Assembly (NCBI GenBank): GCA_038087875.1
Contig: CM075988.1
Coordinates: forward strand, 20,896,001 to 20,960,000
From: Malacoraja senta
Taxonomy: Eukaryota
Reading direction: 5' to 3'
Length of the DNA stretch: 64,000 nucleotides
The notes under the pieces were generated by a model. It was not told the origin of the DNA. It searched no databases and saw only the letters and a list, made by a program, of their open reading frames with translations. Positions 1 to 63,975 of the stretch are shown one piece after another (within the stretch, counting starts at the first letter, position 1; each line of letters starts with the position of its first letter). Made by a program: the position numbers and the translations under genes.

Positions 1-346
1 TGGATAGGTGACGTTTCACAGAGTGCTGGAAAAACTCAGCGGGACAGGCAGCATCTTTGGAGGACATGGATAGGTGACGTTTCACAGAGTGCTGGAGTAA
101 CTCAGCGGGACAGGTAGCATCTCTGGAGAACATGGATAGGTGAAGTTTCACAGAATGCCGGAAAAACTCAGCGGGACAGGCAGCATCTCTGGAGGACATG
201 GATAGGTGAAGTTTCACAGAGTGCTGGAAAAACTCAGCGGGACAGGCAGCATCTCTGGAGGACATGGATAGGTGATGTTTCACAGAGTGCTGGAGTAACT
301 CAACGGGACAGTAGCATCTCTGGAGAACATGGATAGGTGACGTTTC
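1..346. repeat. 66-bp tandem minisatellite (at least 5.2 units, truncated by the window start) derived from a PLE 3' end
   Basis: Unit TGGATAGGTGACGTTTCACAGAGTGCTGGA..CTCAGCGGGACAGGCAGCATCTCTGGAG.ACA restarts at 1, 67, 133, 199, 265 and 330; same sequence as the dispersed PLE tails. Confidence 0.95.
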
Positions 347-661
347 AGGTCAGGACCCTGCTTCCCTATCCATGATTTCCAGGATCGGATCGAGACTACA
401 GAAAGGTCCCGACAAGGAACATTATCTGTCCATGTTCCCCAGAGATGTTGCCTGACTAGCTGAGCTCGTCCATCACTTTACGTCTCTCTGTTTCAAGATC
501 TTTGCACTTTGCTAAGGCTTATTTTTATGATCTTAGCAAAGCATGCACGGGATACATCTCCAAGGTAATATTAATTTATTTACAATCATTGGGCTAAATT
601 TAATACATTTGTCCGTTTTCATGAAATGTTGGCAGTTCTAGCTTTCTTTCTTCCCCACCCC

Positions 662-5509: not shown

Positions 5510-6170
5510 AAAGCGAATGGTATGTTAGCTTTCATAGCAAAAGGATTTGAGTATAGGAGCAGGGAGGTTCTACTGCAGTTGTACAGGGTCTTGGTGAGAC
5601 CACACCTGGAGTATTGCGTACAGTTTTGGTCTCCAAATCTGAGGAAGGACATTATTGCCATAGAGGGAGTGCAGAGAAGGTTCACCAGACTGATTCCTGG
5701 GATGTCAGGACTGTCTTATGAAGAAAGACTGGATAGACTTGGTTTATACTCTCTAGAATTTAGGAGATTGAGAGGGGATCTTATAGAAACTTACAAAATT
5801 CTTAAGGGGTTGGACAGGCTAGATGCAGGAAGATTGCTCCCGATGTTGGGGAAGTCCAGGACAAGGGGTCACAGCTTAAGGATAAGGGGGAAATCCTTTA
5901 AAACCGAGATGAGAAGAACTTTTTTCACACAGAGAGTGGTGAATCTCTGGAACTCTCTGCCACAGAGGGTAGTCGAGGCCAGTTCATTGGCTATATTTAA
6001 AAGGGAGCTAGATGTGGCCCTTGTGGCTAATGGGATCAGAGGGTATGGAGAGAAGGCAGGTACGGGATACTGAGTTGGATGATCAGCCATGATCATATTG
6101 AATGGCGGTGCAGGCTCGAAGGGCCGAATGGCCTACTCCTGCACCTAATTTCTATGCTTCTATGTTTCTA
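5510..6170 (+). mobile_element. 5'-truncated CR1/HER1 LINE: ORF2 C-terminus (ORF 5507-6073) plus 3' UTR
   Basis: [42 protein letters not shown] and FFTQRVVNLWNSLP are CR1 ORF2 C-terminal motifs; (TTTCTATG)n tail; TGTATG on both flanks. Confidence 0.92.
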
Positions 6171-6247: not shown

Positions 6248-8134
6248 TAGCGTTGTTACAAAACCTACCATCAGCGGCGCTCCAGATCTGCCACTGCCTG
6301 CGCGTGCGATTCCGGAGGCTTTGGGGGGGGGGCACGATTAAAATGCAGGTTTGCATTGGTTGTCGGAGAGGGATTTCCTTGGGGCTGCTAGCTGATTGAG
6401 AAAATCCGTACGCCCTTCCCTTCCCGGTTTAAAAAAAAATTAGCTGGACCATAGCGTCGCTGGATTGAACTTAAACACGACTAAAAACGCCTTCAACGCC
6501 TTCAACATCACGGATCGCAATATCAGGACAAAACAAAAGGTACGTTGTTTATTTAACATATTATCTTGCTTTTTGGTGTGGCTTCATTTTAATCTTATGA
6601 TGCGAAAAATGTTATTTATGCCCACATACGAATCGGCCATGTCTTGCCTGCCCATTGGGGCTTAAAATGTATGGCAACGGCAACATTCCAATCGATCACA
6701 TTCCAGAAACATCCACTCTCCAGATAATCAAATTCATTATTTTTTTGCACAATCATGTCATAAGAACATCTAAATCATCTATATTTTGTGTTATTGTCTA
6801 TCCATGATCAATATTTTCATACTAAATATCCACAGTACAGTTTTAGTCAGATGTATTGTGCAAAAAATAATGATTTTGATTATCTTGAGAGTGGATGTTT
6901 CTGGATTCATTATGGGAATTAAACATTAAATTCCTTCCATTTGGCATATAAATTCATGACAAAGTGAGATTTAAAAATCATGTTATATTGTGAATTCTTG
7001 TGTGAATGGGACCATTTTAAATTTGTTATTTGGATACTTAGGCTTTTTTTAAATGTTAGCCTTTTCTTAAGAAATGGACAGATGTTTAGATCTAGTAATT
7101 GAATTTAGATTAATTTAATTGATTAGATGAATTTGATGAAACTGATGAATATGAATTTTTTGTTGGGTATTTACTATTTGTTTTAGCGTTTAACTTTATA
7201 ATTTCTACCTTTTTTCTAAAATTGCAAATAATAACTTGTTTCTGTTAATGCTGTGCAGTGTTTTTTTTTCTTTACATTTTAAACAGATGTCTCTGAAGAA
7301 GAAATGCAAAATTGTCAATCCAAATGCCCAGCAAAAAGAGACTGATTTAGACAGCATTCGCAAAGATTATCCGAATTTGGACTATTCCAAATGTGATGAT
7401 CTGCAGGACATTCTTAATGGGAAAGTAGTGGGCAGAAAGGCATGTCATGTGTGGTTTGAAGAGCAAAAACTTGTAGTTTACAATGCCAAAATTGAAAAGT
7501 TGAGGAAAGACAAGGTGTACAGAGTTGCTTATTGGTTACAATCTGAGGAGTACGATGATGCTACTGATTATGATATGCCAATGTACCAGCTAGCAACTGA
7601 TCTTCTCCATAAAGACTTGATCTATTACTAGAAATTGTAATTTCTTTATTGTTATTATTCAGCATATAATAACAATAATATTAATGTTCTGATCTTGAGA
7701 ATATCACATTTTTGAATTTTCAGGGCAGTCTGGGTGTTTATTACTATTTCCGTCACAACGGTCTATTTTGTAATTAGCTACAATTAGGTAATTAACTAAT
7801 TATATGCTTTAATTTCAGGTCATCCAAGTAAGATGTTTCATATTTGTTTCAGAATGCTTCAATCTATAATAACTAAAAATGTCATTCAGTTCTCTTAATT
7901 TTTAAGAAAGTTATGGGCTTTTGACTGTCCTCGATCACAGCTTTTGTGTTAAGTCAATGGAAAAGCAATAGGGAACAACATGCTAATTTCCGAGTATGAA
8001 AATAACCATAACATTTTTAATACTGAAGATATGAAAGTGAATTAGGTATCAAATTAAAATTATTTTTATGCTTTATCTGATGGGATAAATTACAGGCTTG
8101 ATTTTTATAATCTCAAAATGTTGTAACATTCCTA
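6248..8134 (+). mobile_element. Non-autonomous DNA transposon, TAG...CTA termini, 7-bp TSD (hAT-like; superfamily uncertain)
   Basis: TSD TACAAAC at 6241-6247 and 8135-8141; imperfect TIRs TAGCGTTGTTACAAAA vs TAGGAATGTTACAACA (12/16); interrupts a SINE. Confidence 0.8.
7287..7631 (+). CDS. Transposon-borne 114-aa ORF/exon, putative Tudor/Spindlin(Spin-Ssty)-like domain
   Basis: Open frame in very AT-rich DNA; ATG lies immediately after a polypyrimidine tract plus ACAG acceptor; pattern VGRKACHVW..YNAKI..YRVAY..LATDL..DL. Domain call is by eye only. Confidence 0.55.
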   Translation: MSLKKKCKIVNPNAQQKETDLDSIRKDYPNLDYSKCDDLQDILNGKVVGRKACHVWFEEQKLVVYNAKIEKLRKDKVYRVAYWLQSEEYDDATDYDMPMYQLATDLLHKDLIYY

Positions 8135-8249: not shown

Positions 8250-8535
8250 AATGTAGAAACAAGGAACTGTAGATGATGGTTTACATAAAAGGACACAAGT
8301 GCTGGAGTAACTCAGCGGGTCAAGCAGCAACTCTGGAAATCTTGGATAGGGAAGAAGGGTCCCAACCTGAAGATAGACACAAGTGCTGGAGTAACTCAGC
8401 GGGTCAGGCAGCAACTCTGGAAATCTTGGATAGGGAAGAAGGGTCCCAACCTGAAACGTTACTGAAACATGTTCTCCAGAGATGCTGTCTGACCCACCGA
8501 GATACTCCAGCACTTTGTGTCTATCTTTGCTACAC
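8250..8535. mobile_element. PLE tail inverted pair with an internal tandem duplication of about 82 bp
   Basis: GACACAAGTGCTGG..AACCTGAA occurs twice (about 8292-8370 and 8376-8455), followed by an oppositely oriented tail. Confidence 0.75.
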
Positions 8536-19983: not shown

Positions 19984-20114
19984 TGTTTAAGAAGGAACTG
20001 CAGATGCTGGAAAATCGAAGGTAGACAAAAGTGCTGGAGAAACTCAGCGGGTGCAGCAGCATCTATGGAGCGAAGGAAATAGGCAACGTTTCGGGTCGAA
20101 ACCCTTCTTCAGAC
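19984..20114 (-). mobile_element. Young PLE 3' end inserted in a CR1 tail
   Basis: 10-bp TSD TGGGGAGAAG at 19974-19983 and 20115-20124. Confidence 0.85.
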
Positions 20115-24014: not shown

Positions 24015-24705
24015 CAATGAACCATTGTGGGCTCCATATTTCCTTGATCATCGTTGTATTTTTGCATATCTTTCATTCATTTGCCTTATGTACCTTCTTT
24101 ATCTCTCGGTTCCCATTTCCCCTAACTCTCAGTCTGAAGAAGGGTCTCCACCCAAAACATCACCTATTCCTTTTCTCCAGAGATGCTGCCTGACCTGCGG
24201 AGTTATTCCAGCATTTTGTTTCTATCTTTGGTGTAAACCGGCTTCTGCAGTTCCTTCCCACAGGTTTGTAGGTTAATTGGCTGCTGTTAAATTGTAAATT
24301 GTCCCTAGTGTGTAGGATAGTGTACAGAATGATCGCTGATTGGCGTGGACTTGGTGGGCCAAAGGGTGTGTTTCTCTGAAGAGAAACCAAAGGCCCTGTA
24401 TCTCTCAAGTAAAGTAATGTTTAAAGATCAGATTTTAAATAAGAAGGATTTGATTTATTTTATATAAGGAACAGTTTTATGAAGTTTAAAGAGGTGGTTT
24501 GTGATTAATTTTACTTTTACCTGTGAATGCAAATGACAAAGTCTGAATCTTCTGAGACAGACAAAAATGCTGGAGAAACTCAGCGGAGTTTCCCGAAACG
24601 TCACCGATTCCTTTGCTCCATAGATGCTGCCTCACCCGCTGAGTTTCTCCAGCATTTTTGTCTACCTTTGATTTTTCCAGCATCTGCAGTTCTTTCTTAA
24701 ACACT
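24015..24705. mobile_element. PLE 3' UTR (+, 24015-24260), SINE tail (24259-24420) and PLE inverted pair (24559-24705)
   Basis: Consensus matches; AATCTTCT flanks the inverted pair on both sides. Confidence 0.7.
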
Positions 24706-24999
24706 TAATCTTCTAAAATGCAATTTGGAATATCACTGCTGTTCCATTTCATTCAGATAGTTTAAATGCTCCCATCTCACAAAGGATTATTGGGGGGATG
24801 CTCATATGAGTGCATTTTACAAATTACTGTGATGTCAAGTTATGGGGAGGGGAAGGAAGTGAAATGGAACATGAATTTGGACAAGGATCTTCTATGCTTC
24901 CATGTTGAATATCCCAAATCATTCCATGTCCAGGAAGATAATCTTGAAATTCATTTGCTGTTTATACATAGATGGACAACATCCAATCTTAAGATCAGC

Positions 25000-26270
25000 A
25001 ATTACAGATGCTGGTTTACACCAAAGATACACATCAAATGCTGGAGTAACTCAGCGGGTCAGGCAGCATCTCTGGAGAAAAAAGGAATAGGTGATATTTC
25101 GGGTTGAGACCCTTCTTCAGACACTGAAGGCAACCTGCAAACCTGTACGTCTTTGAAGTGTGGAAGGAAACCGGAGCTGTCAGAGAAAACCCATGCGGTC
25201 ACAGGGAGAACGTACAAACTCCGTATAGACAGCATCCATAGTCAGGATCGAACCTGGGTCTCTGGCGCCGTAAGGCAGCAACTCTACTGCTGCGCCACCA
25301 TGACGCACTTTCAATTAAATGAAAAAAACTATCTTAAAACTACCTTTACCAGAATGCTGCCCGGATTAGAGGGTTTCAGCTACAGGGAGAGGTTGGGTGC
25401 TTGGAGTGTTTTCTCTAGAAAGTCGGAGCTTGAGCACAGACTTGATAGGTGTATAAAATTAGGAGAGGCATAGAAAGGGTAGACAGATTGGAAATGTCCA
25501 ACACTAGAGGGCGTACATGCAAAGTGAGATGGGGAAAACTTAATGCAGATGCGGGGGAAAGTTTTTTTGCACAGAGGGTGGTGGGGGCCTGGAACGCATC
25601 TATAGGGGTGGTGGTGGAGGCAGATATGACAGTGGCAATAAGAGGCTGATAAATAGGTACATGGAAGTGCAGGGAATGGAGGGATAAGGATCGTGTGCAG
25701 AGAGATGAGATCAGTTCAACTTGGCATCAAACATTGCGGGCTGAAGGGCCCGTTCCTGTGCTGTACTGTTCTATGTTCCTTGCCAAAGTATTAAACAGCA
25801 GGAAGACATCAAGTGAAGGCAAATGCAGTCCAAATGTGATATCTTATATAACTTCTCTCTCCGGACATCTGGTTTGTTTCGAACCCAAAGGAGAGGCATA
25901 CACATCTGTATTTAAACACAATCTTCAAAAATTGAAAAGCAAAATAGTCTGGATCCCAGAAATGTAAAATAAACGGGGAGAATGTTGGAAAAAGGTCAGG
26001 GGGGACAGATTTACTAGGAACCTGAGGGGTAACGTTTTCACGCAAAGGGTGGTGGGTATATGGAACCAGCTGCCAGAGGAGGTAGTTGAGGCAGGGACTA
26101 TCGCAAAGTTTAAGAAATGTTTAGATAGGTACATGGATTGGATAGGTGTAGAGGGATATGGGCCATACGCAGGCAGGTGGGACTATTGTAGATGGGATAT
26201 GTTGGCCGGTGTGAGCAAGTTGGGTCGAAGGGGCGGTTTCCATGCTGTAAGACTCTATGACGATGACTTT
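25000..26270. mobile_element. PLE tail (-), SINE head (-) and two old CR1 3' fragments (+; about 25345-25780 and 25995-26270)
   Basis: FTRMLPGLEGFSYRERL, QRVVGAWN and VGIWNQLPEEVVEAG remnants. Confidence 0.7.
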
Positions 26271-32022: not shown

Positions 32023-32495
32023 GTTTAGTTTTAGAGATACAGCATGGAGTCCGCGCCAACCAGCAACTAGTTCTATCTTAAACACACTAGGGATAATTTA
32101 TAACAGCCAATTAACCAACGAATCTGCACGTCTTTGGGATGTGGGAGGACACCGTAGCACCCGGAGCAAACACAAGTGGTCACAGGGCGAACGTACATAT
32201 GCCGTACAGAGAGTGCCCAAGGTCAGGATCGAACCCGAGTCTCTGGCGGTGTCAAGCGGCAACTCTATGGCTGCACCACCGTGCCGCCGCTTCAGAAAAG
32301 GAGTTTGTTTTCTACCGACCAGGGACCTGCCCCACACACAGTCCATTCCCTCTACAGACAGACACAAAATATTGGAGTAACTCAGCGGGACAGGCAGCAT
32401 CTCTGGAGAGAAGGAATGGGTGACGTTTCGGGTCGAGGCCCTTCTTCAGACGCTGCCTGATCCGTTGAGTTCCTCCAGCAGATTGCTCTTTGCTC
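32023..32495. mobile_element. HE1-type SINE (-, 32023-32287) and PLE tail pieces (32335-32495)
   Basis: Consensus matches. Confidence 0.75.
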
Positions 32496-39069: not shown

Positions 39070-39764
39070 TTAGTAGAATGTTCCCTGGGACAAGGAGCTT
39101 CCACTGTGCAGAGGGATCGCAGATGGTGAGGTTGTGAATTTCACTGAAGGGATAGTTGAGAGGAGACATGCTTGAGGTGTTGAATGTCACAGGGTTCAAT
39201 TTAGTTTATTGTCACGTGTACTGAAGTACAGCGAAAACCTTTTTTTTTTGCGTGCTATCCAGTCAGCGGAAAGACTACACGTGATTACAATCGCAGATAT
39301 ACAGGAGAGACATTTTTCTACTATATTATCAGATGGAGCATCTTATTCCGGACACCTCGAAGACACAATTAAGACTTTAGAGATGCAGTGTGGAAACTGA
39401 TTTCGAGGAGAGCTGAGGTTGACCTTTCTCACCCAGAGAGTGTCGATACCTGGAATACACTGCCAGAGAGGTGGAAGTTGAGTCACGGTGGAAGTTGAAT
39501 CTCATCTTGTCCTGGAGTTGAGCCCAGAGCTTGGCTGAGTCGACGGTTCTTGTCTGCTTTAGGGGCGGGGGAGAGATGAGGATCGGTCGAGTCAATAACC
39601 GTGGTCCATGGTGAGCTGGGGTGTAATTCCTCTGTCCTACCATCAGTCTGAAGAAGGGTCCCGACCCGAAATGTCACCTATCTTTTTTCCTCCAGAGATG
39701 CTGCCTGACCAAAGGTGTTACTCCAGCATTTTGTGTCTATCTTTATGAAGTTTAATTTCGTTTT

Positions 39765-42772: not shown

Positions 42773-42789
42773 CCCCGGTATTCTCTTCC

Positions 42790-43520
42790 CAAAGGTGGAC
42801 ACATAATGCTGGAGTAACTCAGCGGGACAGGCACTGCCCAGAGAAAGAATGGGTGATGTTTTGGGTCGAGGCCCTTCTTCAGACTGAGAGTCAGAAGATG
42901 GGGAGACATAGAGATATGGAAGGCTAAGGTGTCTGCTTCCTCTTGCGCTTGAGGCAGCAGAAGTCTGCAGCAGGGTGATGCCGTCCGGTTCGACATCGGT
43001 AGGTGCCCGCCCTAAAAAGAGCGCATGCTCCGGGTTGGCGCCGAGCTGCGGTGCTGCTGCTGCTGCTGTTCTCTGTTTGTTGTCGTTCGCCTGACAGGGC
43101 TCACCACGGGGAGGTCGACAACATGAGCCCCGGCTAAGGAGTGAAAACAGATCAAAGAGGACGGTGAAACAAGATAATGTAGAATGGTACATTGTTACCC
43201 TAGGAGAAGGGGTGGGAGATCGCAACCTTCACGTGGTCCGCCCTGTTTCGACGAATGCAATCAACCTGGCGTGCACAATCAATTAGAACAAGTTGCCCTT
43301 TAACTTTAGGCTGTGCACGCCATATGCATGAAGAAGAAGTTTAGGAGAAAATGACATCGAGGCATACAATCAGTAATGGTTAATCAGGTGGACAGTCAGT
43401 GGAACCAGTCGGAGAATTAGGATGGGGGAGGGGCAGAGAGAGAGGGGAAGCGAAGGGTTACTTGAAGTTATAGAAATCAAAAATCATACCGCTGGGTTGT
43501 AAACTGCCCATGCGAAACAT
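42790..43520 (-). mobile_element. PLE 3' region (ORF end plus UTR) with two nested inserts
   Basis: Tail at 42790-42931; reverse complement of 43458-43520 reads MFRMGSLQPSGMIFDFYNFK*, matching the PLE ORF end at 63659. Confidence 0.7.
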
Positions 43521-44262
43521 TTCCTAAGGTTCTTCACATTAATGAAAATAACAGAGGCTCAGAGTTTTAATGCAAGGAACACTACGTAAAGTCCATGGTA
43601 CTGACCAGAAGAATATACAGTCTGTCTGCTAGGGTCTAATGAAGGCTACTGCTAATATAACAAGGTGATTAAGATAATGCGATCAGTGACATGCCGTATT
43701 TGCTTGATAGGCAAACAGGCACAGAGCTGCCCACACAATCTGCTTCTTACAGCCTCAGTGATTTCATCATCTTTGATAAATGGGGGTGTTAAAATGATTT
43801 CACCAAGCTGTTTGTATTCAAAATGATAGCCCGGAGAGTGTGATGAGAGAATCCTATTCATTCCCCTTCACTTCACAGTACTGCAGCAATGCAGAACGTA
43901 CAGTGGTCTTTCCTGGGTCGCCAGTAATGGGTCCTTCCAAGGGAACCCACTTGTACTGATTCTTACATTGGGTGGAGATAAAGGAGGGTGGTTGAGGGGT
44001 TGTTGGTTGTTGTTGGCCCATCAAGACTACTCCACCATTCAATCATGGCTGATCTATCTTTCCCTCTTAACCCCAGTCTCCTACCTTCTCCCCATAACCC
44101 CTGACACCCGTACTAATCAATTAGTTTGGAGATACAGCGTGGAAACAGCCTCTTTGGTCCACCGAATCCGCGCTGACCTGCGATCCCCGCACACTAACAC
44201 TATCCTCCACACACAAGGGATTTTTTAACAATTTTACCACAGCCAATTAACCTACAAACCTC

Positions 44263-44485
44263 GTGTTAAAGAAGGAACTGCAGATGCTGGAAAATCGAAG
44301 GTATACAAAAATGCTGGAGAAACTCAGCGGGTGCAGCAGCATCTATGGAGCGAAGGAAATAGGCAACGTTTCGGGCCGAAACCCTTCTTCAGACTTCTGA
44401 AGAAGGGTTTCGGCCCGAAACGTTACCTATTTCCTTCGCTCCATAGATGCTGCTGCACCCGCTGAGTTTCTCCAGCATTTTTGTG
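44263..44485. mobile_element. Palindromic PLE tail dimer inserted in a SINE (SINE pieces 44120-44262 and 44486-44635)
   Basis: 89-bp arms 44305-44393 and 44396-44484 with one mismatch and a 2-nt spacer; 14-bp TSD AACCTACAAACCTC. Confidence 0.92.
44397..44428 (+). ncRNA. Minimal type-I hammerhead-ribozyme-like motif (representative copy; mirror copy on the - strand)
   Basis: CUGAAGA-A-GGGU(UUCG)GCCC-GAAA-CGUU: CUGANGA and GAAA boxes flank a 4-bp tetraloop stem II; palindromic AACGUU at stem III; stem I weak. Confidence 0.55.
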
Positions 44486-45086
44486 AACCTACAAACCTCT
44501 ACGTCTTTGGATAGGGGGAGGCAACCGGAGCACCCAAAGAAAACCCACGTAGGTCACGGGGTGAATGTACAAATTCCATACAGATAGCACCCGTAGTCAG
44601 GATCGAACCTGGGTCTCTGGCGCTGTAAGGCAGCATCTCTCTTGTGAACTGCTGTGAAGGAAGCCTCATGTTCAGCTGTGCACTTGAAATACATCGAACA
44701 TAAAACATTACAATACAGGAATGGGCCCTTCAGCCTACAATGTTTGTGTTGAACATGATGCCACGTTAAACTGATCTCATCTGCCTGCACATAATCCATA
44801 TCCTGCTATTCCGTGCTCTTCCATGTGCCTACGTTAAAGCTTCTGAAACGCTATAATCGTATCTGACTCCACCGCTGCCCCTGGCAATGCGTTTTCCAGG
44901 TCTCCAACACTCTGCAATAAAACTTGCCACACACATCTCCATTAAATTTTCGCCCCCTCACCTTATAGCTCTGCCCTCTAGCATTTGTCCTTCCACCCAT
45001 GGAAACAGGGAAAAGGGGGAAAATGTTCCCTCTATAAGCTTCCTGCGCCTCTTTCCATGTGAGAGACCTTCATGGCATTTAGCACT

Positions 45087-45385
45087 GGGCTGTGCAGTGG
45101 CATGGTGGTTGAGTTGCTGCCTTACAGCGTCAGAGACCCGGATTCAATCCTCACTATAGGTGCTGTCTGTGTGGAGTTTGCACGTTCTCCCCCTGTGATT
45201 TGTGTAGGTTTCCCCCGGGTGCCCCTGTTTCTTCCCACATCCCAAAGACGTGCAGGTTTGTGGGTTAATTGCCCTGAGTGCGTAGGACGCAGAAGTGGGA
45301 TAGCCTAGAGCGAATTTACAGGTGATCGATGGTCAGCGTGGACTCGGTTGGTGGGGTAGGACCTGTTTCCAGGCTGCATCTCTGA
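45087..45385 (+). mobile_element. HE1-type SINE, diverged
   Basis: A/B boxes, central domain and tail. Confidence 0.75.
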
Positions 45386-45895
45386 ACTCATGGAAGAAAT
45401 GCCACAGCATTTGAGTTACCTGCAGAGTCTGTTCTCCACAGGAGCCCTCGGGCACAGCACAGCGCAAGGCTTTATGCATGAATAATCAGGGAAGTCGCCA
45501 CAATAGCTTCATATAAAATGAATGTCTCCAGATGCTGGAAGTCTGAAATAAAAACGGAAAATGCTGGAAACCCTCAGCAGGTACCAACATCTGTGGAAAG
45601 AGAACCAGACTTCACATTTCAGCTCAAAGGCATTCGTCAAATTTAAAGACTTTTTCAACCCGGTATTTTATGCCAATTTTGCAGGTCGGTGCTTTGGGTG
45701 CTGAGACACGAGTGTTTCACGCGAGCGACTTAAAACAAAAAACAAACCGAACACCAGCCCACGAGGGCAAGCTGTCACAATCGTGACCAAAGTGGCAAGT
45801 TTCAAGGAGCATCATACTGATGGACACAAAGGCAGGGAGGTTGCGGATGTAAAGCTGCAACTCTACCGCTGCACTACTGTGCCACCCCTAACTAA

Positions 45896-46453
45896 TGGGC
45901 CTGTCCCACTTAGCCGATTTTTTTAGTCGACGACTGCCAGCGACTGTCTTAGTCGTAGAAGTTGCCGAAAAACCATGACTGGACCCCCCTACGGCAACGT
46001 CTACGACAACCTACCACCTAGTCGACGTCCAGCTACGGCAAGCTACCGACAACCGGCGATCCATTACGACCTCCATCTACGACCACACCTACCACAACCT
46101 ACGTCCACCCGCGACAAGCTGCGACAAAGGTAAGGCAATTCAGTCGCCGGTACCTGTCGCCGGTTGACGTAGGTTGAGGTAGGTAGTCGCCAATGGAATT
46201 CACCGAAGTCAGCACCGGCGACAACCTGCGTCATCCTGGCGGCAACCTACGACAGCACCTACGTCAGGAGAAGTCAAGCTACGCTCACTGTCGCCGAAAA
46301 GTTGTAAACATTTCAAAATCCAGCGGTGACCTGAAAAACGCGACGATTCTTTGGGCGACTGAGGAGACGACTCACGGCCATACGGACGACACCCCGGTGA
46401 CCATGTGGCGACAGCCTAGTCGCCTAAAAAATTGCCTATGTGGGACAGGGCCA
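45896..46453. mobile_element. PIF/Harbinger-type MITE, family C
   Basis: TIRs TGGGCCTGTCCCACTTAGCCGATTTTTT / AAAAAATTGCCTATGTGGGACAGGGCCA; TAA TSDs at 45893-45895 and 46454-46456; internal CGACAACCTAC-like repeats. Confidence 0.85.
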
Positions 46454-47614
46454 TAAGGCAGAACCCCTTTTTAGGGCAAATGCAATGAGCTAATGCCAAC
46501 AGGCCCCCTGGGTTCAGGACCAATAAGGTAGGAACACAAACAGGGTGATGGTTTTGAGCCAGTGAGGAGCGCAAAGATTTATTTTTCTAAAATGCAGCCT
46601 AGATTAGAGGTTTTCAGCTACAGGGAGAGGTTGGATAGACTTGGAATGTTTTTTTCTTGAACGTTGGAGGTTGAGGGAAGATTTGAGAGAAGTATATCTG
46701 CATTTGATAGGTCAGCCATGATCACATTGAATGGCGGTGCTGGCTCGAAGGGCCAAATGGCCTACTCCTGCACCTATTGTCTATTGTCTATTATATACGT
46801 TTATGAGTGGCAAAGATAGGGTGGACAATCGACCTCTTTCCCAGGGTGGAAATGTCCAATGCCAGAGGGCAGAGCTGAAAGGCGAGAGGGGGAAAGTTCA
46901 ATGGAAATTTGAGGGGCAAGTTTTTTTACACAGCGACTGGAAGGGGTGGAGACAGATACGATAGTGGCATTTCAGCGGCTTTTAGATGAGCACATGGATG
47001 GCTGGGGAATAGTGGGATTGTAGATCATGTACAAGCAGATAAGATCAGTTTTTTGGCACGTTTTCAAGAAAGAGTTCGATTTAGCTCTTCGGGCTAAAGG
47101 AGTCAAGGGATATGGGAAAAAAGCAGGAACGGGGTACTGATTTTGGATGATCAGCCATGATCATATTGAAAGGCGGTACTAGCTGGAAGAGCCGAATGAC
47201 CTACTCCTGCACCTATTTTCTATATTTCTATGTTTTAATGGCATTGTGTTCATTGTGGGCCAAAGAGCCTGTTCCTTTGCTGTGTTGGAAGGAACTGCAG
47301 ATGCTGGTTTAAAGCAGATAGACACAAAAAGCTGGAGTAACCCAACGTGTCAGGCAGCATCTCCGGAGAAAAGGAATAGGTGATGCACTGATTTGCTGTA
47401 CAGTTCTATGCTCTATGATTGCTAGTGTAATTTTTTTCTGTATAGATAAGGCAACCCATGCAGCAGTATTTATTTCAATTCTCATAATATCTAACCGTGC
47501 AGCTGAGTGACTCCAGCGTTTTGTGTCTATCTGCTTTAAACCAGCATCTGCAGTTCCTTCCTACAGTTTGACTTGGTTGATTCATCTCCTTTTTTCCCTG
47601 GATATGTATGTTGG

Positions 47615-50380
47615 GGTATGGGGAATAAAGATATGGCAGAGGAGTTGAATAACTTTTTTGCATCAGTCTTCACAGTTGAAGACACCAGCAATGTGCCTGA
47701 AATTCAAGAGAGTCAGGGGGCGGAAGTTAGTGGAGTGGCTGTTACTAAGGAGGAGGTGCTTGGAAAGCTGAAAGGGCTGAAGGTGAATAAGTCACCTGGG
47801 CCAGATGGACTGCACAATAGGGTTCTGAAATAGGTGGCTTTAGAAATTGTGGAGGCATTAATAGTGATATTTCAAGAATCACAAGAGTCAGGATAGACAC
47901 AAAATGCTGGAGTAACTCAGCAGGACAGGCAGCATCTCTGGAGAGAAGGAATGGATGACGTTTCGGGATCCGAAAAAGTCACCCATTCCTTCTCTCCAGA
48001 GATGCTGCCTGACCCGCTGAGTTACTCCAGCATTTGGTGTCTATCTTCGGTTTAAACCAGCATCTGCAGTTCCTTCCTACATATCACTGGAGTCAGGAGC
48101 GTTTCCAGACGATTGGAAAATTGCCAATATTACCCCGCTGCCAAGCCGAATAGTTGGAACTATAGGCCAGTTAGTCTGACTTCGGTGGTGGGTAAGAGTC
48201 AAAGTATAGAAGAGAGATCGAGCAACTGTCCATATGGTGCCAGCACAATAACCTGGCCCTCAACACCAGCAAAACCAAGGAACTGATTGTGGACTTTGGA
48301 AGGAGTAGGATGGGGACCCACAGTCCCGTTTATATCAACGGGTCGATGGTTGAAAGGGTCAAGAGCTTCAAATTCCTGGGGGTGCACATCTCTGAAGATC
48401 TTTCCTGGTCCGAGAACACTAATGCAATTATCAAGAAAACTCATCAGCGCCTCTACTTCCTGAGAAGGTTACGGAGAGTCGGTTTGTCAAGGAGGACTCT
48501 CTCTAACTTCTACAGGTGCACAGTAGAGAGCATGCTGACCGGTTGCATCATGGCTTGGTTCGGCAACTTGAACGCCCTGGAGAGGAAAAGACTACAAAAA
48601 GTAGTAAACACTGCCCAGTCCATCATCAGCTCTGACCTCCCTTCCATCGAGGGGATTTATCGCAGTCGCTGCCTCAAAAAGGCTGGCAGCATCATCAAGG
48701 ACCCACACCATCCTGGCCACACACTCATCTCCCTGCTACCTTCAGGTAGAAGGTACAGGAGTCTGAAGACTGCAACAACCAGGTTCAGGAATAGCTACTT
48801 CCCCACAGCCATCAGGCTATTAAACCTGGCTCGGACAAAACTCTGATTATTAATAACCCATTATCTGTTAACTGCAATTTATCAGTTTATTTATTCATGT
48901 GTGTATATATTTATATTATGGTATATGGACACACTGATCTGTTTTGTAGTAAATGCCCACTATGTTCTGTTGTGCAGAAGCAAAGCAAGAATTTCATTGT
49001 CCTATCAGGGACACATGACAATAAACTCACTTGATTTTAGAGTTCATTATAAAGTATGAGGTTACGGATTATTTAAAAGTTCAGGATAAAATAGGCCAAA
49101 TTCAGCATGGCTTTGTGAAGGGGAGGACTTGCCTGACAAATCTGGAATTCTTTAAAGAAGTAAATAGCAGGTCAGACAAAGGAGAGTCAGTAGATGATGT
49201 TTGCCTAGATTTTTAGAAAGCATTTGATAAGGTGCCACACGTGAGGCTGTGAAGGTAGATGAGAGCCCATGGTACCAAAGGGCAGATACTAGCATGGATA
49301 GCAAGTTGGCCGGATGGCAGAAGGCAAAGAATGCCAATAAAGGGGTATTTTTCTGGTTGGCTGCCAGTGACTAGTGGAGTTCCACGAGGGTCGGTGCTGG
49401 GGCCGCTACTATTCACATTGTATATTAATGATTTGGATGAGGGGGTTGAAGGCTTTGTGGCCAAGTTTGCTGATGAGATGAAAATAGGTGGCGGGGCAGA
49501 TAATGTAGAGAAAGCAGGGACTCTGCAGAAGGACTTACACAGGTTGGGAGAGTGGGCTGAGAAGTGGCAGATGGAATATGGTGTAGCAAAGTGTGGAGTC
49601 GTGCATTTTGGTAGTCGGAATAAAGGTGTAGACTATTTTCTAAATGGGGAGAGAATCCAGAAATCGGAGGTGCAAAGGGGCTTGGGATTGCTGGTGCAGG
49701 ATTCCCTAAAAGTTAATCTGCAAGTCGAATTGGTAGTAAAGAAGGCAAACTCAATTCTAGCATTTTTTTTCGAGAGGGCTAGAATACAAAAACAGGGATG
49801 TAATACTGAGGCTTTATAAGGCACTGGTCAGGTCGTATTTGGAGTACTGTGAGCAATTTTGGGCACCATATCTGAGGAAGGATGTGCTGGCCCTGGAGAG
49901 GAAGAATGATCCCAGGAATGAGTGGGTTAACATATGATTAGCATTTGACGGCACTGGGCCTGTACTCGCTGGAGTTTGGAAGAATGAGGGGGGACCTCAT
50001 TGAAACGTACAGAATAATGAAAGTCTTGGATGGAGTGGATGTGGAGAGGATGTTTCCACTAGTGGGAGAGTCTAGGACTAATCATAGCCTCAGAATTAAA
50101 GGGTGTTCATTTAGGAAGGATATGGGGAAGAACTTCTTTGATCAGAGGGTGGTGAATCTGTGGAATTCTTTGCCAGAGAAGGCTGTGGAAACCAAGTCAA
50201 TGGATACTTTTAAGGCAGAGATAGATAGATTCTTGATTAGTACTGGTGTCAGGAGTTATGGGGAGAAGACAGGAGAATGGGGTTAGGAGTGAGAGATAAA
50301 TCAGCCATGATTGAATGGCGGAGGAGACTCGATGGGCCAAATGGCCTAATTCTGCTCCTATCACTTATGACCTTATGAAC
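47615..50380 (+). pseudogene. Decayed CR1/HER1 LINE ORF2 (RT region to 3' tail), interrupted by a PLE pair (47894-48082) and a Rex1 copy
   Basis: KSPGPDGLH, QHGFVKGRTCLTNL, LDF*KAFDKV, SGVPRGSVLGPLLFTLYINDL, KFADE and QRVVNLWNSLP, with stops and frameshifts. Confidence 0.92.
48196..49033 (+). mobile_element. 5'-truncated Rex1/Babar-like LINE, RT C-terminus in frame
   Basis: KTKELIVDF..VERVKSFKFLGVHISEDLSW..QRLYFLRRL..LLPSGRRYRS..RFRNSYFP; tail ACATGACAATAAAC; the host CR1 rejoins as GGTAAG/ATTTTAGAG. Confidence 0.85.
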
Positions 50381-51639
50381 TGTAAGCTGTGAATAAAGAA
50401 GCACCGGGCTTCGAGCGTGATTAAATAACGCATTCTAACTCTGAACAACAGATTTTAAGTGTATTTCAAGCGAGCGGCGATTAGATAATCGGACCCAGAG
50501 AGCACCTCAGCAGCTGAGAGACTTCGTTCCAAATCCACAGGAAATCTACAATTGCAAAACACAATCTGGCTCCACTCTTGAATTCCAGATATTGGTTGAG
50601 GATGTAGACCAAACTTTGCAAAATGTTACAGCTTTTACTGACACAGGGGACTTGTAACATTGACTGCACACTCAACATTCTGGGCAGATTTTTCACATTC
50701 TTTCGATTACTTTTTTTCCTATTTATTTCAATTCTGAAAAAATATCCAACTGCTAAACGTTGCCATAGTTCCAAAGAGGTGAAATCCCGTTAACTTTAGA
50801 TGCATTGTAATTTATTAATATTTTAAATATTGGCTCTATCAAAATATACTCATTTCAACTGACAGACGTTACACAGAGATGTATTAGAATCACACAGCGC
50901 GGAAATAGGCCATTTGACACAACTCGGTCTTGACGACTAAGGTGCCCCTTCTAAGTTAGTTCCTTTTGCCTGTGTTTGTCCCATATCCCTCTTAATCTGA
51001 CCAAGTGTCTTTTAAATATAGTTATATATACACATTTTAAATATGTTATAGTACCTGCCTCAACTATCACCTCGGGAGGTTCCTTCCATATTCCCTCCAC
51101 CCTTCGGATGAAAAGGTGCCCCTCAGGTTGGTATTCAACCTCTCTCTGCTCATCTTAAACCTTTGTACTCTGGTTTTTATTTGCCCTACCCTGGGTAAAA
51201 GACCCTATCTATCCCCTCATGATTTTATAGAACTCTAGAAGATCACCCCTCAGCCTCCTGTGCTCCAAGGAACAGAGTCCGAGCCGACCCAATGTCTCGC
51301 GACAACTCAACCCTCTAGTCCTAGCAATGTTTTTTGATAATTGAAGTTAATTGATAAATTCTGGTGGTCATCATATCTATTAATGATTAATTAATGATGA
51401 ATAAGTTTATTTGCCAAGTATTCACATATAAGGAATTTGCCTTGGTGCTCTGCCCACAAGTGACAACGACATACAGTGACAGTTAGGAATGACACATAAA
51501 ACATTAATAATAAAACATTATTGATTAAACATGTAAATTAAATAAAATACCAGAGCAATAGGAGGCTACAGATTTTGATTATCTTAGGTTATCAATATAT
51601 GTGGACATTGTGAAATTATCTTTCATTTAATTCTTCTTT

Positions 51640-51990
51640 GCAGCTTGCTCTGTACTTCTGGAGGAGTGAGCACCACTGGATATTGGAGGAGCAGCACCTC
51701 ATATTCCGCTTGGGCAGTTTGCACCCTTGCGGCATAAACATTGACCTCCAATTTCCGGTAGCCCTTGCTGTCTCCTCCCCTTCTCAGCTCTCCCTCAGCC
51801 CTCGGGCTCCTCCTCTTCCTTTCTCCTTTCTTCTCCCCCCCTCCCCACCCTACATCAGTCTGAAGAAGGGTTTTGGCCCGAAACGTTGCCTATTTCCTTC
51901 GCTCCATAGATGCTGCTGCAACCGCTGAGTTTCTCCAGCACTTTTGTCTACCTTCGATTTTCCAGCATCTGCAGTTCCTTCTTAAACACT
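51640..51990 (+). mobile_element. PLE: C-terminus of the GIY-YIG endonuclease ORF plus 3' UTR with hammerhead-like motif
   Basis: LEEQHLIFRLGSLHPCGINI resembles the PLE ORF end (E..WI..L.TL.P.GLN type); motif at 51860-51890. Confidence 0.8.
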
Positions 51991-52270
51991 TTTTCTGTAC
52001 TTCCAGCGTTTATCGTTAATTATTCTACGAAGGAGAATCACTTCTTATGGAAGTTGAGTTTCCTGTTGAAGTCAAGTCAATTTGAGTTTATTGCCACTTA
52101 CACAGATATAGTGAGGTGCAGATACGATGAACATTTTGCTTATATTTTCATTCACGTCAGTGTAGGGAACAGTGAAGAGAAAACTGGACAAGAGGACCAC
52201 TTGCAGGCTAAATATTAGTCCAAGTTAAGACGTGGAAGATTAAGTTGAAGTCATTATCGAACCTTCTATT

Positions 52271-52461
52271 TAGACACAAAATGCTGGAGTAACTCAGCGG
52301 GTGAGGCAGCATCTCTGGAGAGAAGGAATGGGTGACGTTTCTTCACTGAAGAAATGTCGCCCATTCCTTCTCTCCAGAGATGCTGCCTCACCCGCTGAGT
52401 TACTCCACCATTTTGTGTCTACCTTTGATTTAAACCAGCATCTGCAGTTCTTTCTTACACA
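52271..52461. mobile_element. PLE tail inverted pair
   Basis: Arms at about 52271-52345 and 52347-52421 are reverse complements. Confidence 0.8.
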
Positions 52462-52579
52462 TTCCCTTCTATTTGTTATTCTCAGTCAATCAAATCCTTC
52501 CAGAGATGGAAACTTAGTGATTAGTATCATTAGGTTTCTAAATTTATAGAGTTACCTCCTTTTGATTTGCTAGAAAAAA

Positions 52580-57089: not shown

Positions 57090-57228
57090 ATGTGTAGGAA
57101 CGAACTGCAGATGCTGGTTTAAATCAAAGGCAGACACAAAATGCTGGAGTAACTCAGCGGGACAGGCAGCATCTCTGGAGAGAAGGAATGGGTGACGTTT
57201 CGCATCGAGACCCTTCTTCAGACTGATT
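57090..57228 (-). mobile_element. PLE 3' end with TSD
   Basis: ATACATTATTCTATG occurs on both sides (about 57077-57092 and 57232-57246). Confidence 0.8.
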
Positions 57229-57780
57229 ATTATACATTATTCTATGATCTATGTACTTCATTTTAGCCTTCCTCGAGATCCTTACTTATAATGAAGATGA
57301 TGCAAAGTCCAATGGAAGTTCGTTTATAACCAGACTCAACTACTGTAGATACTCTTCCAGTGATTAAAATCATTTGCCTTTCCACCAACCATCTATTGTT
57401 ACAAGCACTGTAAAATATCTAATTCTCCCTGAAATGTGTGCACTTGATTATTTGCCGAGCGTCTTTCAAAAGGAGTGGACACAACGTATTTCATCATTCC
57501 AGTAGGCAAGCAATGAATCATCCAGAGCAGATTGGACTTTATCAGCCCTTAAATAATATTCTCTGTTTTCTAACTTTGGATGCCCTTGCATTCTCTCATA
57601 CATCAGTCAAACTAATTTGCCATTTCAAGTGACAGCTTACCAATATTTTACATATTCAGATAACATATTCGGCTTTGGTCATTGTGAATAGTCTTACATA
57701 AACCGATCATGATTTGCTTTGCCAAGCACTGCCGTACAGTATGAGGGTGCATACTTGCTGAACCAACACATCCAAATTTT

Positions 57781-58150
57781 GTGTCGGAAGGAACTGCAGA
57801 TGCTGGTTCACACCGAAGTTAGACGCAACATGCCGGAGTAGCCCAGCGGGTCAGGCAGCATGTCTGGAGAAAAGGAATAGGCGACGTTTCGGGTCGAGAC
57901 CTTTCTTCCAACTGAGAGTCAGGAGAGAGGGAAGCTACAGAAAAGAATGAAAGGTATGAAATGAACCAATCAAGGCCAGCAGGGATGACCAAGGAAAGGT
58001 GGAGCCCACAATGGTCCATAACGAGAGGGCACGAACAGTGAAACTAAGCAGGACGACAATGAAACTAGTAGGACGACTTGGATAGGAAACGGAGAGAGAG
58101 GGAATGCAACGGTAACTTAAAATTAGAGAAATCAATATTCATACCACTGG
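57781..58150 (-). mobile_element. PLE 3' region
   Basis: Tail consensus; reverse complement of 58112-58148 reads SGMNIDFSNFK. Confidence 0.75.
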
Positions 58151-58536
58151 CCATCGAAATATTATTTCTTCTGTACTTTTCAGAATATGTGTTTCTCATT
58201 GTACCAATGTATAATCATATATATATACTATTATACATTCCTACTTTTAGCAGCATTGTGAATCATACTTTTCTCCGTATGAAATGTAAAGGCATCTGCT
58301 CATTTACTGAATGTTTTTGGTGAATTTCTGTTTCCTTGTTATGCAATTAGAGGTGTCGCAGAATCTCGTGCTGAATGAGTCAACGCTTGATCAGATTCCT
58401 TAACCCAATACATCAAGGTGGCTTCTGTCTTCTGCAAACACACCTCTGGAGAATGCAGTGGGGAAAAAAACAAATCAACAGTGGAAAAAAAACAAAGACT
58501 AACCCTATCTATTGCCGGAGTGAGATCACAAGAATC

Positions 58537-58772
58537 CTGAGGAACAGCACCTCATATTCTGCTTGGGTAGCCCACAGCCCAACAGAATATACGTTGAATT
58601 CTTCACTTTCAAAGACGTACAGGTTTGTAGGTTAATTGGCCTGGTATAGATGTAAAATTGTCCCTAGTGTGTGTGGGACGGTGTAAGTGTGTGGGGATCA
58701 CTGGTCGGTGTGGACACGGTGGGCCGAAGAGCCTGTTTCCACGCTGTATCTCTAAAACTAAAAAAACAAAAC
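58537..58772 (+). mobile_element. PLE ORF-end fragment fused to a SINE 3' half
   Basis: EEQHLIFCLGSPQPN, then AAAGACGTACAGGTTTGTAGG.. SINE tail. Confidence 0.7.
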
Positions 58773-60937: not shown

Positions 60938-61912
60938 AATCAAATCAAATCAAATCAACCTTTATTGTCATAAAGACGTTTCCCAGGGAATACCGGAGCA
61001 TCGCACATGAAATTTAAAACATTTCACACATAATAACACTGAAAACAATCCAGTCCCTGATGGAACAGTATAAATAGTTAAAAAGTAGGTAAAACAACAA
61101 CGTTAAAATACAGTAAAACCAATCATAAACATGTCCGGGGTGGCTGATTTGAGTGGCCAGTGCCAGTTATTGAAGTGGCCAGTGCCAGTTATTAAAGTGT
61201 CCGTGCCAAGCCGCAGAATCAGGTGACTGTGAGTACAGAGTGGCTGTTTAGCAGCCTCACAGCATATGGCAGGAAGCTGTTTCGCAGTCTTGTAGTCCGG
61301 GCTTTGATGCTGCGATATCTCTTGCCTGATGGCAGGAGATCCAGGTGTATGTGGAGGGGGTGCAGTTTGTCCTTAGCAATTCTCTGAGCTTTTTTCCGAC
61401 AGCGGCTCTGGAACAGTTCTTGTACCGAGGGTAGGGAGACGCCAATGATCTTCTCTGCTCCCCTCACTACCCTCTGCAGAGCCTTCCTGTCCGAGCAGTT
61501 GCAGGTGGAGTACCACGTATTTATGCAGTACAGACTCCACCGTACCCCTGTAGAAAGTCCTGAGGATGTTGGTGGGGAGTGAGGCCTGTTTTAGTTTCCT
61601 CAGGAAGTGCAGTCGCTGATGGGCCCCTTTGATGGTCCCCGTGGTGTTCCTGGACCAGGTGAGGCTGTCTGTAATTTGCACCTCGAGGAACTTTATGCTC
61701 TCCACTCTCTCCACTGATGTTAAGGGGTGCATGCTTTGGCTGCGCCCTCCTGAAGTCGACAACCATCTCCTTTGTTTTGTCGACATTTAATTCTAGATTA
61801 TTTTTGCCGCACCAGTCCACTAGTTGTTTTACTTCCTCCCTGTACATTGATTCATCATCTCCGCTGATGAGTCCCACCACTCTTGTGTCATCCGCGAATT
61901 TTATGATCTTAT
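60938..61912 (-). mobile_element. 5'-truncated Rex1/Babar-like LINE, second family
   Basis: IIKFADDTRVVGLI..LNVDKTKEMVVDFR, QRLHFLRKL and LLPSGKRYRSI with frameshifts; (TTTGA)n tail. Confidence 0.85.
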
Positions 61913-61929
61913 TGTCCCAGGACATATTG

Positions 61930-62550
61930 ACAGGTTACATCACGGTTCGGCAACTCTAAAGCCCAGGGACGAAGGAGAAAACAAAAAGTGGTGAACACTG
62001 CCCAGTCCATCACGGATACTGACCTCCCCACCATCGAAGGGATCTTTACAAGGTGCTCACAAAGGCAGCCAGCATCGTCAGGGGCCCACAACACCCTGGG
62101 CAAACTCTCATTCTACAGTGTATAGATACAGATTAAAGGGAATAATGTTTAGTGCAAGATAAATGATCAATGTTCATTCCAGTAATGTCCGATTAACGAT
62201 AGCCCGAGGGCCTCCAATGTGGGTAGAAGGTAGGTCAGGACCGCTCTCTAGTTGGTGATAGGATGGTTCAGTTGCTTGATAACAGCTGGGAAGGAAGTGC
62301 CCCTGAATCTGGAGGTGTGCATTATCACACTTCTGTACCTCTTGCCTGATGGGAGAGTGAAGAAGAGGGAGGGAGTGGTCCTTGATTATGCTGGTGGCCT
62401 TGCCAAAGCAACGTGAAGTGTGGATGGAGTCAAGGTTGGTTTGCGTGATGGTTTGGACTGCGTCCACAATTCTCTGCAATTACTTATGGTCTTGAACGGA
62501 GCTGTTCCCGATCCAGACTGTGATTCATCACGATAAAATCCTTTCCACAT
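61930..62550. mobile_element. Degenerate Rex1-like fragments in both orientations
   Basis: CAAAAAGTGGTGAACACTGCCCAGTCCATC on + (compare 48595); QRIVDAVQTIT..ATSIIKD on -. Confidence 0.65.
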
Positions 62551-63657: not shown

Positions 63658-63975
63658 TTTGGAGGAGCAGCACCTCATATTTCGCTTGGGCAGTTTACAC
63701 CCCAGCGGTATGAACATTGACTTCTCTAACTTCAGGTAGCCCTTGCGTTTTCTCCCCATCCCCTCCCCCTTCCCAGTTCCCCCACTAGTTTACTGTCTCT
63801 GCCTACATTCTTTGTGACTCCTGCCCCCTCCCCTGACATCAGTCTGAAGAAGGATCTCGACCTGAAACATCACCAATTCCTTCTCTTCATAAATGTTGCC
63901 TCACCCACTGAGTTACTCCAGCATTTTGTGTCTACCTTCGATTTTTCCAGCATCTGCAGTTCTTTCTTAAACACG
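63658..63975 (+). mobile_element. PLE: GIY-YIG ORF C-terminus plus 3' UTR
   Basis: LEEQHLIFRLGSLHPSGMNIDFSNFR*, a C-rich UTR, then CTGAAGAAGGATCTCGACCTGAAAC and the terminal consensus. Confidence 0.8.

Follow-up and report, generated by a model that had tools for sequence, protein, structure and literature searches.

A head-to-head insertion and its hammerhead-bearing repeat family, probably the terminal pieces of a Penelope-like retrotransposon, in a 64-kb DNA window

As shown in Table 1, the window, that is, the whole 64-kb stretch of DNA that was analysed, contains at 44263–44485 a single insertion made of two arms that stand head to head between perfect 14-bp duplications. Offsets are numbered from C3 of the hammerhead core (= 0), and the predicted cut lies between +27 and +28. 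The flagged core on the right arm has 11/11 core bases and its 4-bp stem II intact, and its stem I is down to one pair, the second pair being lost because the copy begins at −1; beside it, a second core is mirrored on the minus strand. A transcript across the insertion is predicted to fold into one long hairpin (−186 kcal/mol, z −27) and carries only one ribozyme in sense; therefore, such a transcript is unlikely to cleave, and the flagged ribozyme is predicted to be locked in the hairpin. The fold-back inserts at 44263–44485 and 47894–48084 are both near-perfect hairpins with weak scores against microRNA-precursor models and, if transcribed, could feed double-stranded-RNA pathways. The SINE-like repeat that served as the target is very abundant (44200–44640 and many other places), has been the target of several Penelope-type insertions and, as we take it, resembles elasmobranch SINEs. 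The window also holds LINE fragments, which we assume to be CR1 and L2, at 5381–6073, 48196–48846 (ALKBH8_N match), 49259–49819 (RVT_1 match) and 61219–61934, and a 145-codon open frame on the minus strand at 7194–7631 that is unlike the surrounding repeats and has no Pfam match.

Table 1. Features of the flagged insertion and of related copies in the window (offsets relative to C3 of the core).
Position	Strand	Feature	Remark
1..364	-	Tandem array of a 66-nt unit (+20 to +85), 5.3 copies	Runs off window edge
19984..20114	-	Solitary copy with intact core, -2 to tail end	Flanked directly on both sides by a 10-bp target duplication
24554..24703	.	Head-to-head pair with unequal arms (+61 and +17), one of them tailed	11-bp duplication with 1 mismatch
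24994..25123	-	Descriptor-passing copy, core at 25120	15.2-16.2 = U-A
32356..32451	-	Copy from -2 to about +93, core at 32449	Passes family-independent descriptor
39643..39744	+	Descriptor-passing copy, core at 39648	15.2-16.2 = U-G
42789..43535	-	ORF end (43535-43461), interrupted spacer, decayed core at 42882	Tail-less
44249..44262	+	Perfect 14-bp target-site duplication, left copy	Target is a SINE-like repeat
44263..44395	-	Left arm of flagged insertion, -3 to +129, intact core 44392-44365	35-40 nt tail (about 44300-44263)
44396..44485	+	Right arm of flagged head-to-head insertion, -1 to about +88, tail-less	
44397..44424	+	Flagged minimal hammerhead core, C3 to H17	Predicted cut after 44424
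44486..44499	+	Perfect 14-bp target-site duplication, right copy	
47894..48084	.	Two arms head to head, meeting at +17/+18, one arm tailed	Exact 9-bp duplication close by
51659..51993	+	ORF-linked copy: frameshifted endonuclease C-terminus 51659-51761, pyrimidine-rich spacer, intact core 51860-51887, tail	
52271..52462	.	Two arms head to head, one of them tailed	10-bp duplication
57093..57228	-	Solitary copy with two disrupted stem II pairs, -7 to tail end	18-bp duplication with 1 mismatch
57780..58151	-	ORF-linked copy with the final 12 codons, then a longer spacer, a decayed core at 57910 and the tail	
58539..58613	+	ORF end without hammerhead behind	SINE-like repeat follows
63659..63974	+	ORF-linked copy with the final 26 codons plus stop (63659-63739), followed by spacer, decayed core (63844-63871) and tail	

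The motif is far from solitary. An exact-pattern search found eight hammerhead-like cores in the 64-kb window and none in 100 dinucleotide shuffles, and with up to three substitutions permitted there were 23 core matches, compared with none in 20 simulated sequences. A hammerhead descriptor without family letters, requiring a 2-bp stem I, gave six window matches vs none in 100 shuffles, which bears out the minimal hammerhead proposed in the initial annotation; all six belong to one Penelope-type repeat family of about 135 nt, and the flagged copy is not among them because it begins at −1. With a search profile built from 16 window copies and ending at +130, 56 pieces of this repeat were found (26 on the plus and 30 on the minus strand), covering 5,472 bp or 8.6% of the window, and 52 pieces remain once four internal units of one tandem array are dropped. 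The core is spanned by 29 of the 52; the earlier estimate of about 25 copies thus fits the core-bearing copies, but the whole family is about twice as large. All 11 core bases and H17 are intact in 12/29 core-spanning copies, nine of the 29 also keep stem II and the 15.2–16.2 pair, and 17/29 have lost a core base; the majority base is canonical at every position. The motif is present within 1–4 nt of all seven coordinates first given as examples, although stem II pairs are broken at 57192 (−) and 63844 (+), and the stem II loops (UUCG, CUCG, CCCG, CCCA) and closing pairs (U-A or U-G) are as originally described. A comparison with Rfam hammerhead models, suggested as a check, gave no match window-wide at the gathering score; at E ≤ 10 over 44200–52100 there were 20 matches with no hammerhead model among them. 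The E-value scan returned only microRNA-precursor models, on the two fold-back hairpins and far below threshold, because of the inverted repeat. The family-specific motif pattern had no match in the metagenome contigs searched, and a looser pattern had none in the bacterial and archaeal genomes searched.

The architecture of the motif is a 4-bp stem II, an extra A after A9 (33/34 copies), a stem III palindrome, ACGU or, in the young subfamily, AACGUU (self-duplex −3.1 and −3.5 kcal/mol), and a stem I of only two pairs followed by a conserved A-C mismatch. It has been reported that minimal hammerheads recurrently have an unpaired base between positions 9 and 10.1, a G10.1-C11.1 pair and a palindromic 15.2–16.2 stem, that helix I of the Drosophila virilis motif is 2 bp, and that such motifs occur in fish Neptune elements (PMC4209133, available text). 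The extra A, first listed as a caveat, is therefore a feature of the class, and the short stem I, the other caveat, is probably one too, since the same source reports both. Such motifs show no cleavage as monomers and low cleavage as dimers (PMC4209133), and the window motif is likewise predicted to self-cleave weakly. In computed folds, the hammerhead is the minimum-energy fold in 0/5 single copies, stems I and II together lie 1.5–1.8 kcal/mol above the minimum, and computed dimers took other folds.

Covariation within the window family is one-sided only. The looser pattern, however, gave 35 matches at 34 metagenome loci, forming 11 clusters by downstream sequence, which share nothing with the window family beyond the core region; 4/35 have an endonuclease match upstream on the same strand. 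Six window copies and 25 of these 35 matches were taken for the covariation count, the other 10 being near duplicates or at contig edges, and three matches on viral contigs, likely of another topology, were kept out of it. Three stem II pairs and the core are fixed by the pattern and carry no weight, and sequences within a cluster are not independent. Among the 31 sequences, pair 2.2–1.2 is G-C in 16, C-G in 9, U-A in 3 and unpaired in 3, and the stem II closing pair is C-G in 18, U-A in 5, G-U in 3, A-U in 1, U-G in 1 and unpaired in 3. Pairing cells are filled at 91.8%, compared with 79.7% in shuffles and 16–47% when the alignment is slid. Position H17, left free by the pattern, is C in 24, U in 11 and G in none of the 35 outside matches. 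The proposed covariation thus takes the form of two-sided changes in stems I and II across outside families, but not within the window family itself. The viral contigs (L035, L036 and L037, about 1201–1226; AT-rich) have a similar core just upstream of an apparent ORF; their letters after GAAAC differ, and they may be hammerheads of another topology. In five metagenome loci (L005, L011, L027, L032 and L034), from unrelated minimal hammerhead families, an inverted piece is joined at or shortly before the core.

The missing Rfam match at the gathering score or at E ≤ 10, the weak predicted fold, the neutral decay of the inserted copies and the finding that the anole element can insert in vitro even with a mutated ribozyme (PMC11167929) would all suit a likeness that is vestigial or due to chance, with the motif serving solely as a protein-binding site. 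This is quite improbable in view of the two-sided changes in stems I and II and the consistent lack of G at H17 in all 11 sequence clusters, the absence of subfamily differences from 10/10 non-CpG core positions vs 63/94 downstream (p 0.03), and the cleavage of the anole motif when protein is present (PMC11167929). The first reading, in which a Penelope-like pseudo-LTR holds a minimal type I hammerhead whose stem III is palindromic and has no loop, is supported by the ORF link, the covariation and the descriptor.

The ORF link is provided by four repeat copies that lie downstream of a same-strand ORF end, while a fifth ORF end is interrupted by a different repeat. Only the last 12–35 codons of the ORF are present in the window, and they match P0003, a protein of Mobula. 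The ORF-end peptide first matched the tail of a skate protein record, and that tail led to P0003 and to P0004 (Chiloscyllium); 63617–63736 matches residues 332–369 of P0003 with 62% identity (E 5e-9), and 51647–51751 aligns to its C-terminus at 54% identity. P0003 has YIDD, a C-x5-C-x2-C linker and a GIY-YIG-type motif, the Pfam GIY-YIG match (E 5e-4) being below the curated cut-off. At E ≤ 0.001, 198 cluster-representative proteins match the ORF-end C-terminus, and 3/17 of those scanned have RVT_1 together with a weak GIY-YIG match; the named relatives are all from cartilaginous fishes, which makes this group the likely host of the window element. A cysteine linker (Cx2-5CxxC) is present in 5/6 long relatives checked and is a feature of the relatives rather than of the window DNA. 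No full-length element, reverse transcriptase or GIY-YIG motif was found within the 64-kb window, and the window's own ORF ends match no Pfam family. The GIY-YIG-type ORF ends that had been read before the motif are real as ORF ends, but they are short (26–35 residues) and the GIY-YIG motif itself is absent from the window; the copy said to start at 51640 is indeed ORF-linked, but it starts at 51659, behind a 10-bp target duplication (51649–51658 and 51994–52003). Since the cysteine linker marks Neptune and Nematis (PMC8557442), the window element is likely a Neptune-group Penelope-like element, an assignment that rests on an ORF end of 26–35 residues and its relatives.

Several observations concern the coding potential around these copies. 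An ATG frame crosses the tail (51910–51990 on the plus strand and siblings) and is open in three young-subfamily copies; in most other copies it has a stop near codon 16–18, with the downstream frame kept, and protein comparison of this frame as a possible ORF N-terminus found no relative. In the public protein P0002, named neuromedin-U receptor 1, the terminal stretch of ~75 residues (about 425–499) is this element's endonuclease, probably through a gene-model error or an exonised repeat. In run X22, whose library strandedness is not stated, first mates stand at ~2:1 on the plus strand over the ORF end (51686–51713) vs ~1.1:1 over the hammerhead part (51882–51937).

The insertions themselves have a regular layout. 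Adjacent opposite-strand pairs in the window are head-to-head in 10/10 cases, with centres at −3/−1, 0/+1 and +17/+18, and exactly one tail is present in 7/9 evaluable pairs, including all four with a duplication, while two of the nine break the one-tail rule. Target duplications with a score of at least 9 flank 7/40 units, compared with 6/400 random pairs; five of these seven are abutting and not of low complexity, one further duplication flanks the ORF-linked 51659 copy, and the lengths span 9–18 bp. In the pair at 52271–52462, both arms appear to be without the same 15 nt, between two GAA, which is all of stem II; this suggests that one arm was copied from the other or from a common template, and also that an intact ribozyme is not needed. 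It has been reported that Penelope-like insertions carry an inverted pseudo-LTR, a 30–40 bp tail at one end and duplications of 8–10 bp, and that their palindromic junctions have been interpreted as self-priming (PMC3846280, PMC8557442).

The 3' ends of the 52 pieces fall into two clusters, 19 at +83 to +100 and 28 at +124 to +130, with two between and three shorter. On the 5' side, 20/29 core-bearing copies end within −1 to −8, compared with 4.7% expected from the downstream stop rate (counted by hand, with three boundaries fixed by target duplications), which confirms the earlier observation that boundaries cluster beside the core; 9/29 extend into the spacer. The interval around the cut site, +24 to +31, holds 5/44 5' ends and shows no enrichment (p 0.055), and +16 to +23 holds 6/39 (p 0.009, not independent). 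That most core-bearing copies stop just before the ribozyme and not at the predicted cut is the less ordinary point of this family. Public reads give the same ends: in four runs compared with 51630–52020, loose ends pile up before 51858 (−2) and behind 51952–51954 and 51988 among the matches listed, i.e., at offsets −2, +92 to +94 and +128; their flanks are unrelated, and 446 reads of the RNA run have their loose end at −2. Read depth rises about sevenfold or more at 51854–51867, to which spacer divergence between subfamilies may contribute, and in two of the four runs about 81,000 and 84,000 contigs matched 51630–52020. In a raw poly(A) run from a related organism, of which 6% was read, 9,325 of 7.3 million records match and 94% of them run into unlike sequence; there is no place in this run where many molecules begin or end, no RNA start at −3 and no pile-up at the cut site. 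These reads look like host read-through and say little on cleavage.

The sharp 5' boundary invites the view that the 95–135 nt unit is a SINE-like, non-autonomous element in its own right, with its own sources and mobilised in trans by the Penelope protein, as Penelope termini can be (PMC3846280). Short copies outnumber ORF ends by about ten to one (52 pieces vs 5; four- to sevenfold in depth in other runs), and two subfamilies recognised by eye have no ORF-linked copy in the window. This view is nevertheless improbable: three short copies are 94–98% identical to the ORF-linked copy at 51860, 9/29 core-bearing copies extend into the spacer, a count for which the boundary at 20112 was set by its duplication, no internal polymerase III promoter is evident by eye, and copies cut at −1 to −3 lose the upstream half of the initiator-like motif.

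The initial annotation had called the system retrozyme-like. Retrozymes consist of tandem units that each carry a full type I hammerhead (PMC7229834; bioRxiv 10.64898/2026.07.22.740005), and in a non-LTR retrozyme dimeric hammerheads would cut out tandem units, which are then circularised and reinserted. Such elements are reported to originate from Penelope pseudo-LTRs and to be present in one cartilaginous fish, and 1/9 dimers tested in that study cleaved (bioRxiv 10.64898/2026.07.22.740005), and the window does have a 66-nt tandem array at 1–364. The units of this array, however, run from GAAAC (+20), not the cut site, to approximately the first 3' cluster (+85) and lack CUGANGA; they are 92% alike and could have arisen by repeated priming or later unequal crossing-over. 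There is no direct tandem with two intact cores in the window, an 84-nt duplication at 8292–8455 having no complete core; the 10/10 head-to-head pairs leave only one ribozyme per transcript; and no unit-to-unit joint occurs among the 15 joints listed of 142 in the poly(A) RNA run. With the only array devoid of its CUGANGA half, short copies 94–98% like their ORF-linked sibling and boundaries apparently off the cut site, the retrozyme reading is very improbable and was abandoned.

Two accounts of the 5' boundary within the Penelope-like element itself carry more weight. In one, the RNA begins there: the copies end just before the core and not at the cut site, and the templates were therefore likely uncleaved RNA beginning at that point. 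An RNA start as the cause of the 5' cluster has close to an even chance. TCAGTCT at the boundary of the copies, as we take it, fits the initiator consensus; some outside families do not retain this initiator-like motif. The layout differs in D. virilis, where 46 nt separate the transcription start from a 75-nt intron (PMC2377424) and this intron ends at helix I (PMC4209133); a start that lies ~120 nt upstream of the ribozyme, on the far side of an intron, speaks against −3 as a general start. In the other account, for which the chances are appreciable and somewhat below even, the same element has its 5' pile-up set by DNA-level processing or polymerase drop-off: through resolution by the endonuclease, through fold-back at the near-palindrome TCAG-T-CTGA, or because the polymerase stalls where it meets the pyrimidine tract. 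Self-priming and endonuclease resolution have been proposed for these elements (PMC3846280, PMC8557442), pair centres lie at −3/−1, 0/+1 and +17/+18, and outside families whose upstream sequence differs likewise have their boundary at the 5' edge of stem I (6/10 distinct loci of one family, by eye). A structural block, however, would act on the 3' side of a fold, and +16 to +23 holds only the 6/39 ends given above, several from paired arms; moreover, no pair centre fits a simple fold-back at the natural near-palindrome. Splicing at a 3' site formed by the AG that precedes the core was rejected as the cause of the boundary: the AG is not kept in outside families, no spliced joint occurs in the RNA run among the matches listed, and target duplications abut −2 without a captured exon.

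Meanwhile, the inserted copies appear to decay freely. G12, which lies in a CpG, is kept in 27/39 copies, compared with 245/352 for other CpG bases (p 1.0), and non-CpG core bases are kept in 323/346 cases vs 2,362/2,606 at downstream positions without subfamily differences (p 0.11), a neutral baseline that was picked post hoc and has an upward bias; when the core is compared with every downstream non-CpG position, the figures are 93% and 83%. Subfamily differences, by contrast, affect 0/10 non-CpG core positions vs 31/94 downstream (p 0.03). The excess conservation of the core over its flanks that a working ribozyme would call for is thus absent among inserted copies but present between families. 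From these sequence counts, we read the inserted copies as decaying without sign of selection, with selection acting on source elements only. Overall, the repeats are probably end pieces, truncated at their 5' side, of a Penelope-like retrotransposon that has a minimal type I hammerhead motif in its pseudo-LTR and whose inserted copies decay with no sign of selection.

For the life cycle of such an element, the following course is proposed. The repeat follows an ORF end that matches a protein with reverse transcriptase and GIY-YIG domains, and it was likely the element's own endonuclease and reverse transcriptase that inserted the copies, with uncleaved RNA as the template. It has been reported for the anole element that reverse transcription begins internally at two sites, by which the tail is defined, that its hammerhead requires protein for cleavage while ribozyme mutants still insert in vitro, and that no RNA-seq reads end at the cut (PMC11167929). 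By analogy, the two 3' clusters observed 35–40 nt apart may be two internal starts of reverse transcription, and the 9–18 bp duplications found at 7/40 units would point to staggered nicking and target-primed copying. Copying started in the upstream pseudo-LTR would give a 95–135 nt copy, and copying started in the downstream one would give the longer copies that reach the ORF. Core-bearing copies mostly end 1–8 nt before the core, and the template RNA may often begin there, at the initiator-like TCAGTCT. In the one-tail pairs, the second arm would be made at insertion, by fold-back on the first arm or by re-use of the template. The ribozyme of the source element is predicted to fold only with a partner, through the 4-bp palindromic stem III, and with the element's protein, and to trim transcripts at +27/+28; insertion would not require cleavage. 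A bolder, rather doubtful version is that the 5' edge of the hammerhead is a fixed end of Penelope reverse transcription, that the RNA starts 1–3 nt before stem I, and that mini-copies primed 95 or 130 nt downstream flooded cartilaginous-fish genomes at about one per 1.2 kb, perhaps propagating themselves as a hammerhead-headed SINE. If this is true, finding that boundary in unrelated invertebrate-like families as well would turn it into a rule for the Penelope cycle in general.

These findings would extend the minimal hammerhead class of Penelope-like elements to a likely cartilaginous fish, at unusually high density. In addition, the map of ends, in which thousands of stumps would mark the two sites where Penelope reverse transcription begins and the point where it ends, just before the ribozyme and not at its cut, bears on the role of the hammerhead in the Penelope cycle and on the origin of the inverted arm. 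Genomic counts of minimal hammerheads overstate the number of active ribozymes, as 17/29 core-spanning copies here are without a core base and the flagged copy is predicted to be hairpin-trapped.

The motif class, the host element and the insertion layout are already published. In the literature searched, which included few subscription papers and no repeat databases, the window family appears undescribed in cartilaginous fishes, and the same search, again with few subscription papers, turned up no statement of copies ending just 5' of a hammerhead. Like non-LTR retrozymes, the family is non-coding, has a type I hammerhead and has Penelope ancestry (PMC7229834; bioRxiv 10.64898/2026.07.22.740005), but it lacks tandem units with a full ribozyme each, its motif is minimal rather than canonical, and its junctions appear to lie off the cut site. 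It resembles the Poseidon element PAc of Anolis carolinensis (PMC11167929) in its two tail-defining 3' clusters, the hammerhead upstream of them and the absence of RNA ends at the cut site; it differs in probably belonging to another clade and in putative start sites that lie ~35–40 nt apart in the window, and it may differ in its ORF start, which in PAc is inside the ribozyme. With Neptune elements (PMC8557442, PMC3846280), it shares a C-terminal GIY-YIG protein with a cysteine linker as nearest relative, the head-to-head inverted copy, the tail at one end and duplications of about 9–18 bp, whereas the window inserts are mostly the terminal 95–135 nt and no microsatellite targeting is evident. 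The closest likeness in motif is to the minimal hammerheads of metazoan Penelope-like elements (PMC4209133): the CUGANGA and GAAA boxes, the unpaired base between 9 and 10.1, the G10.1-C11.1 pair, the palindromic 15.2–16.2 stem without loop 3 and the pseudo-LTR location agree, as does the occurrence mostly as single dispersed copies with some opposite-strand pairs, known in the fish elements Xena, Poseidon and Neptune. Stem II is 4 bp in the window vs 7–8 bp in Schistosoma mansoni, and stem I is 2 bp vs 4–5 bp in S. mansoni and 2 bp in D. virilis, within the published range of 2–5 bp. The hosts named in the available text of that source include no cartilaginous fish, and the density seen here, six descriptor-passing copies in 64 kb, is far above that of the about 4,000 (coelacanth) and 9,000 (Xenopus) copies per genome given there.
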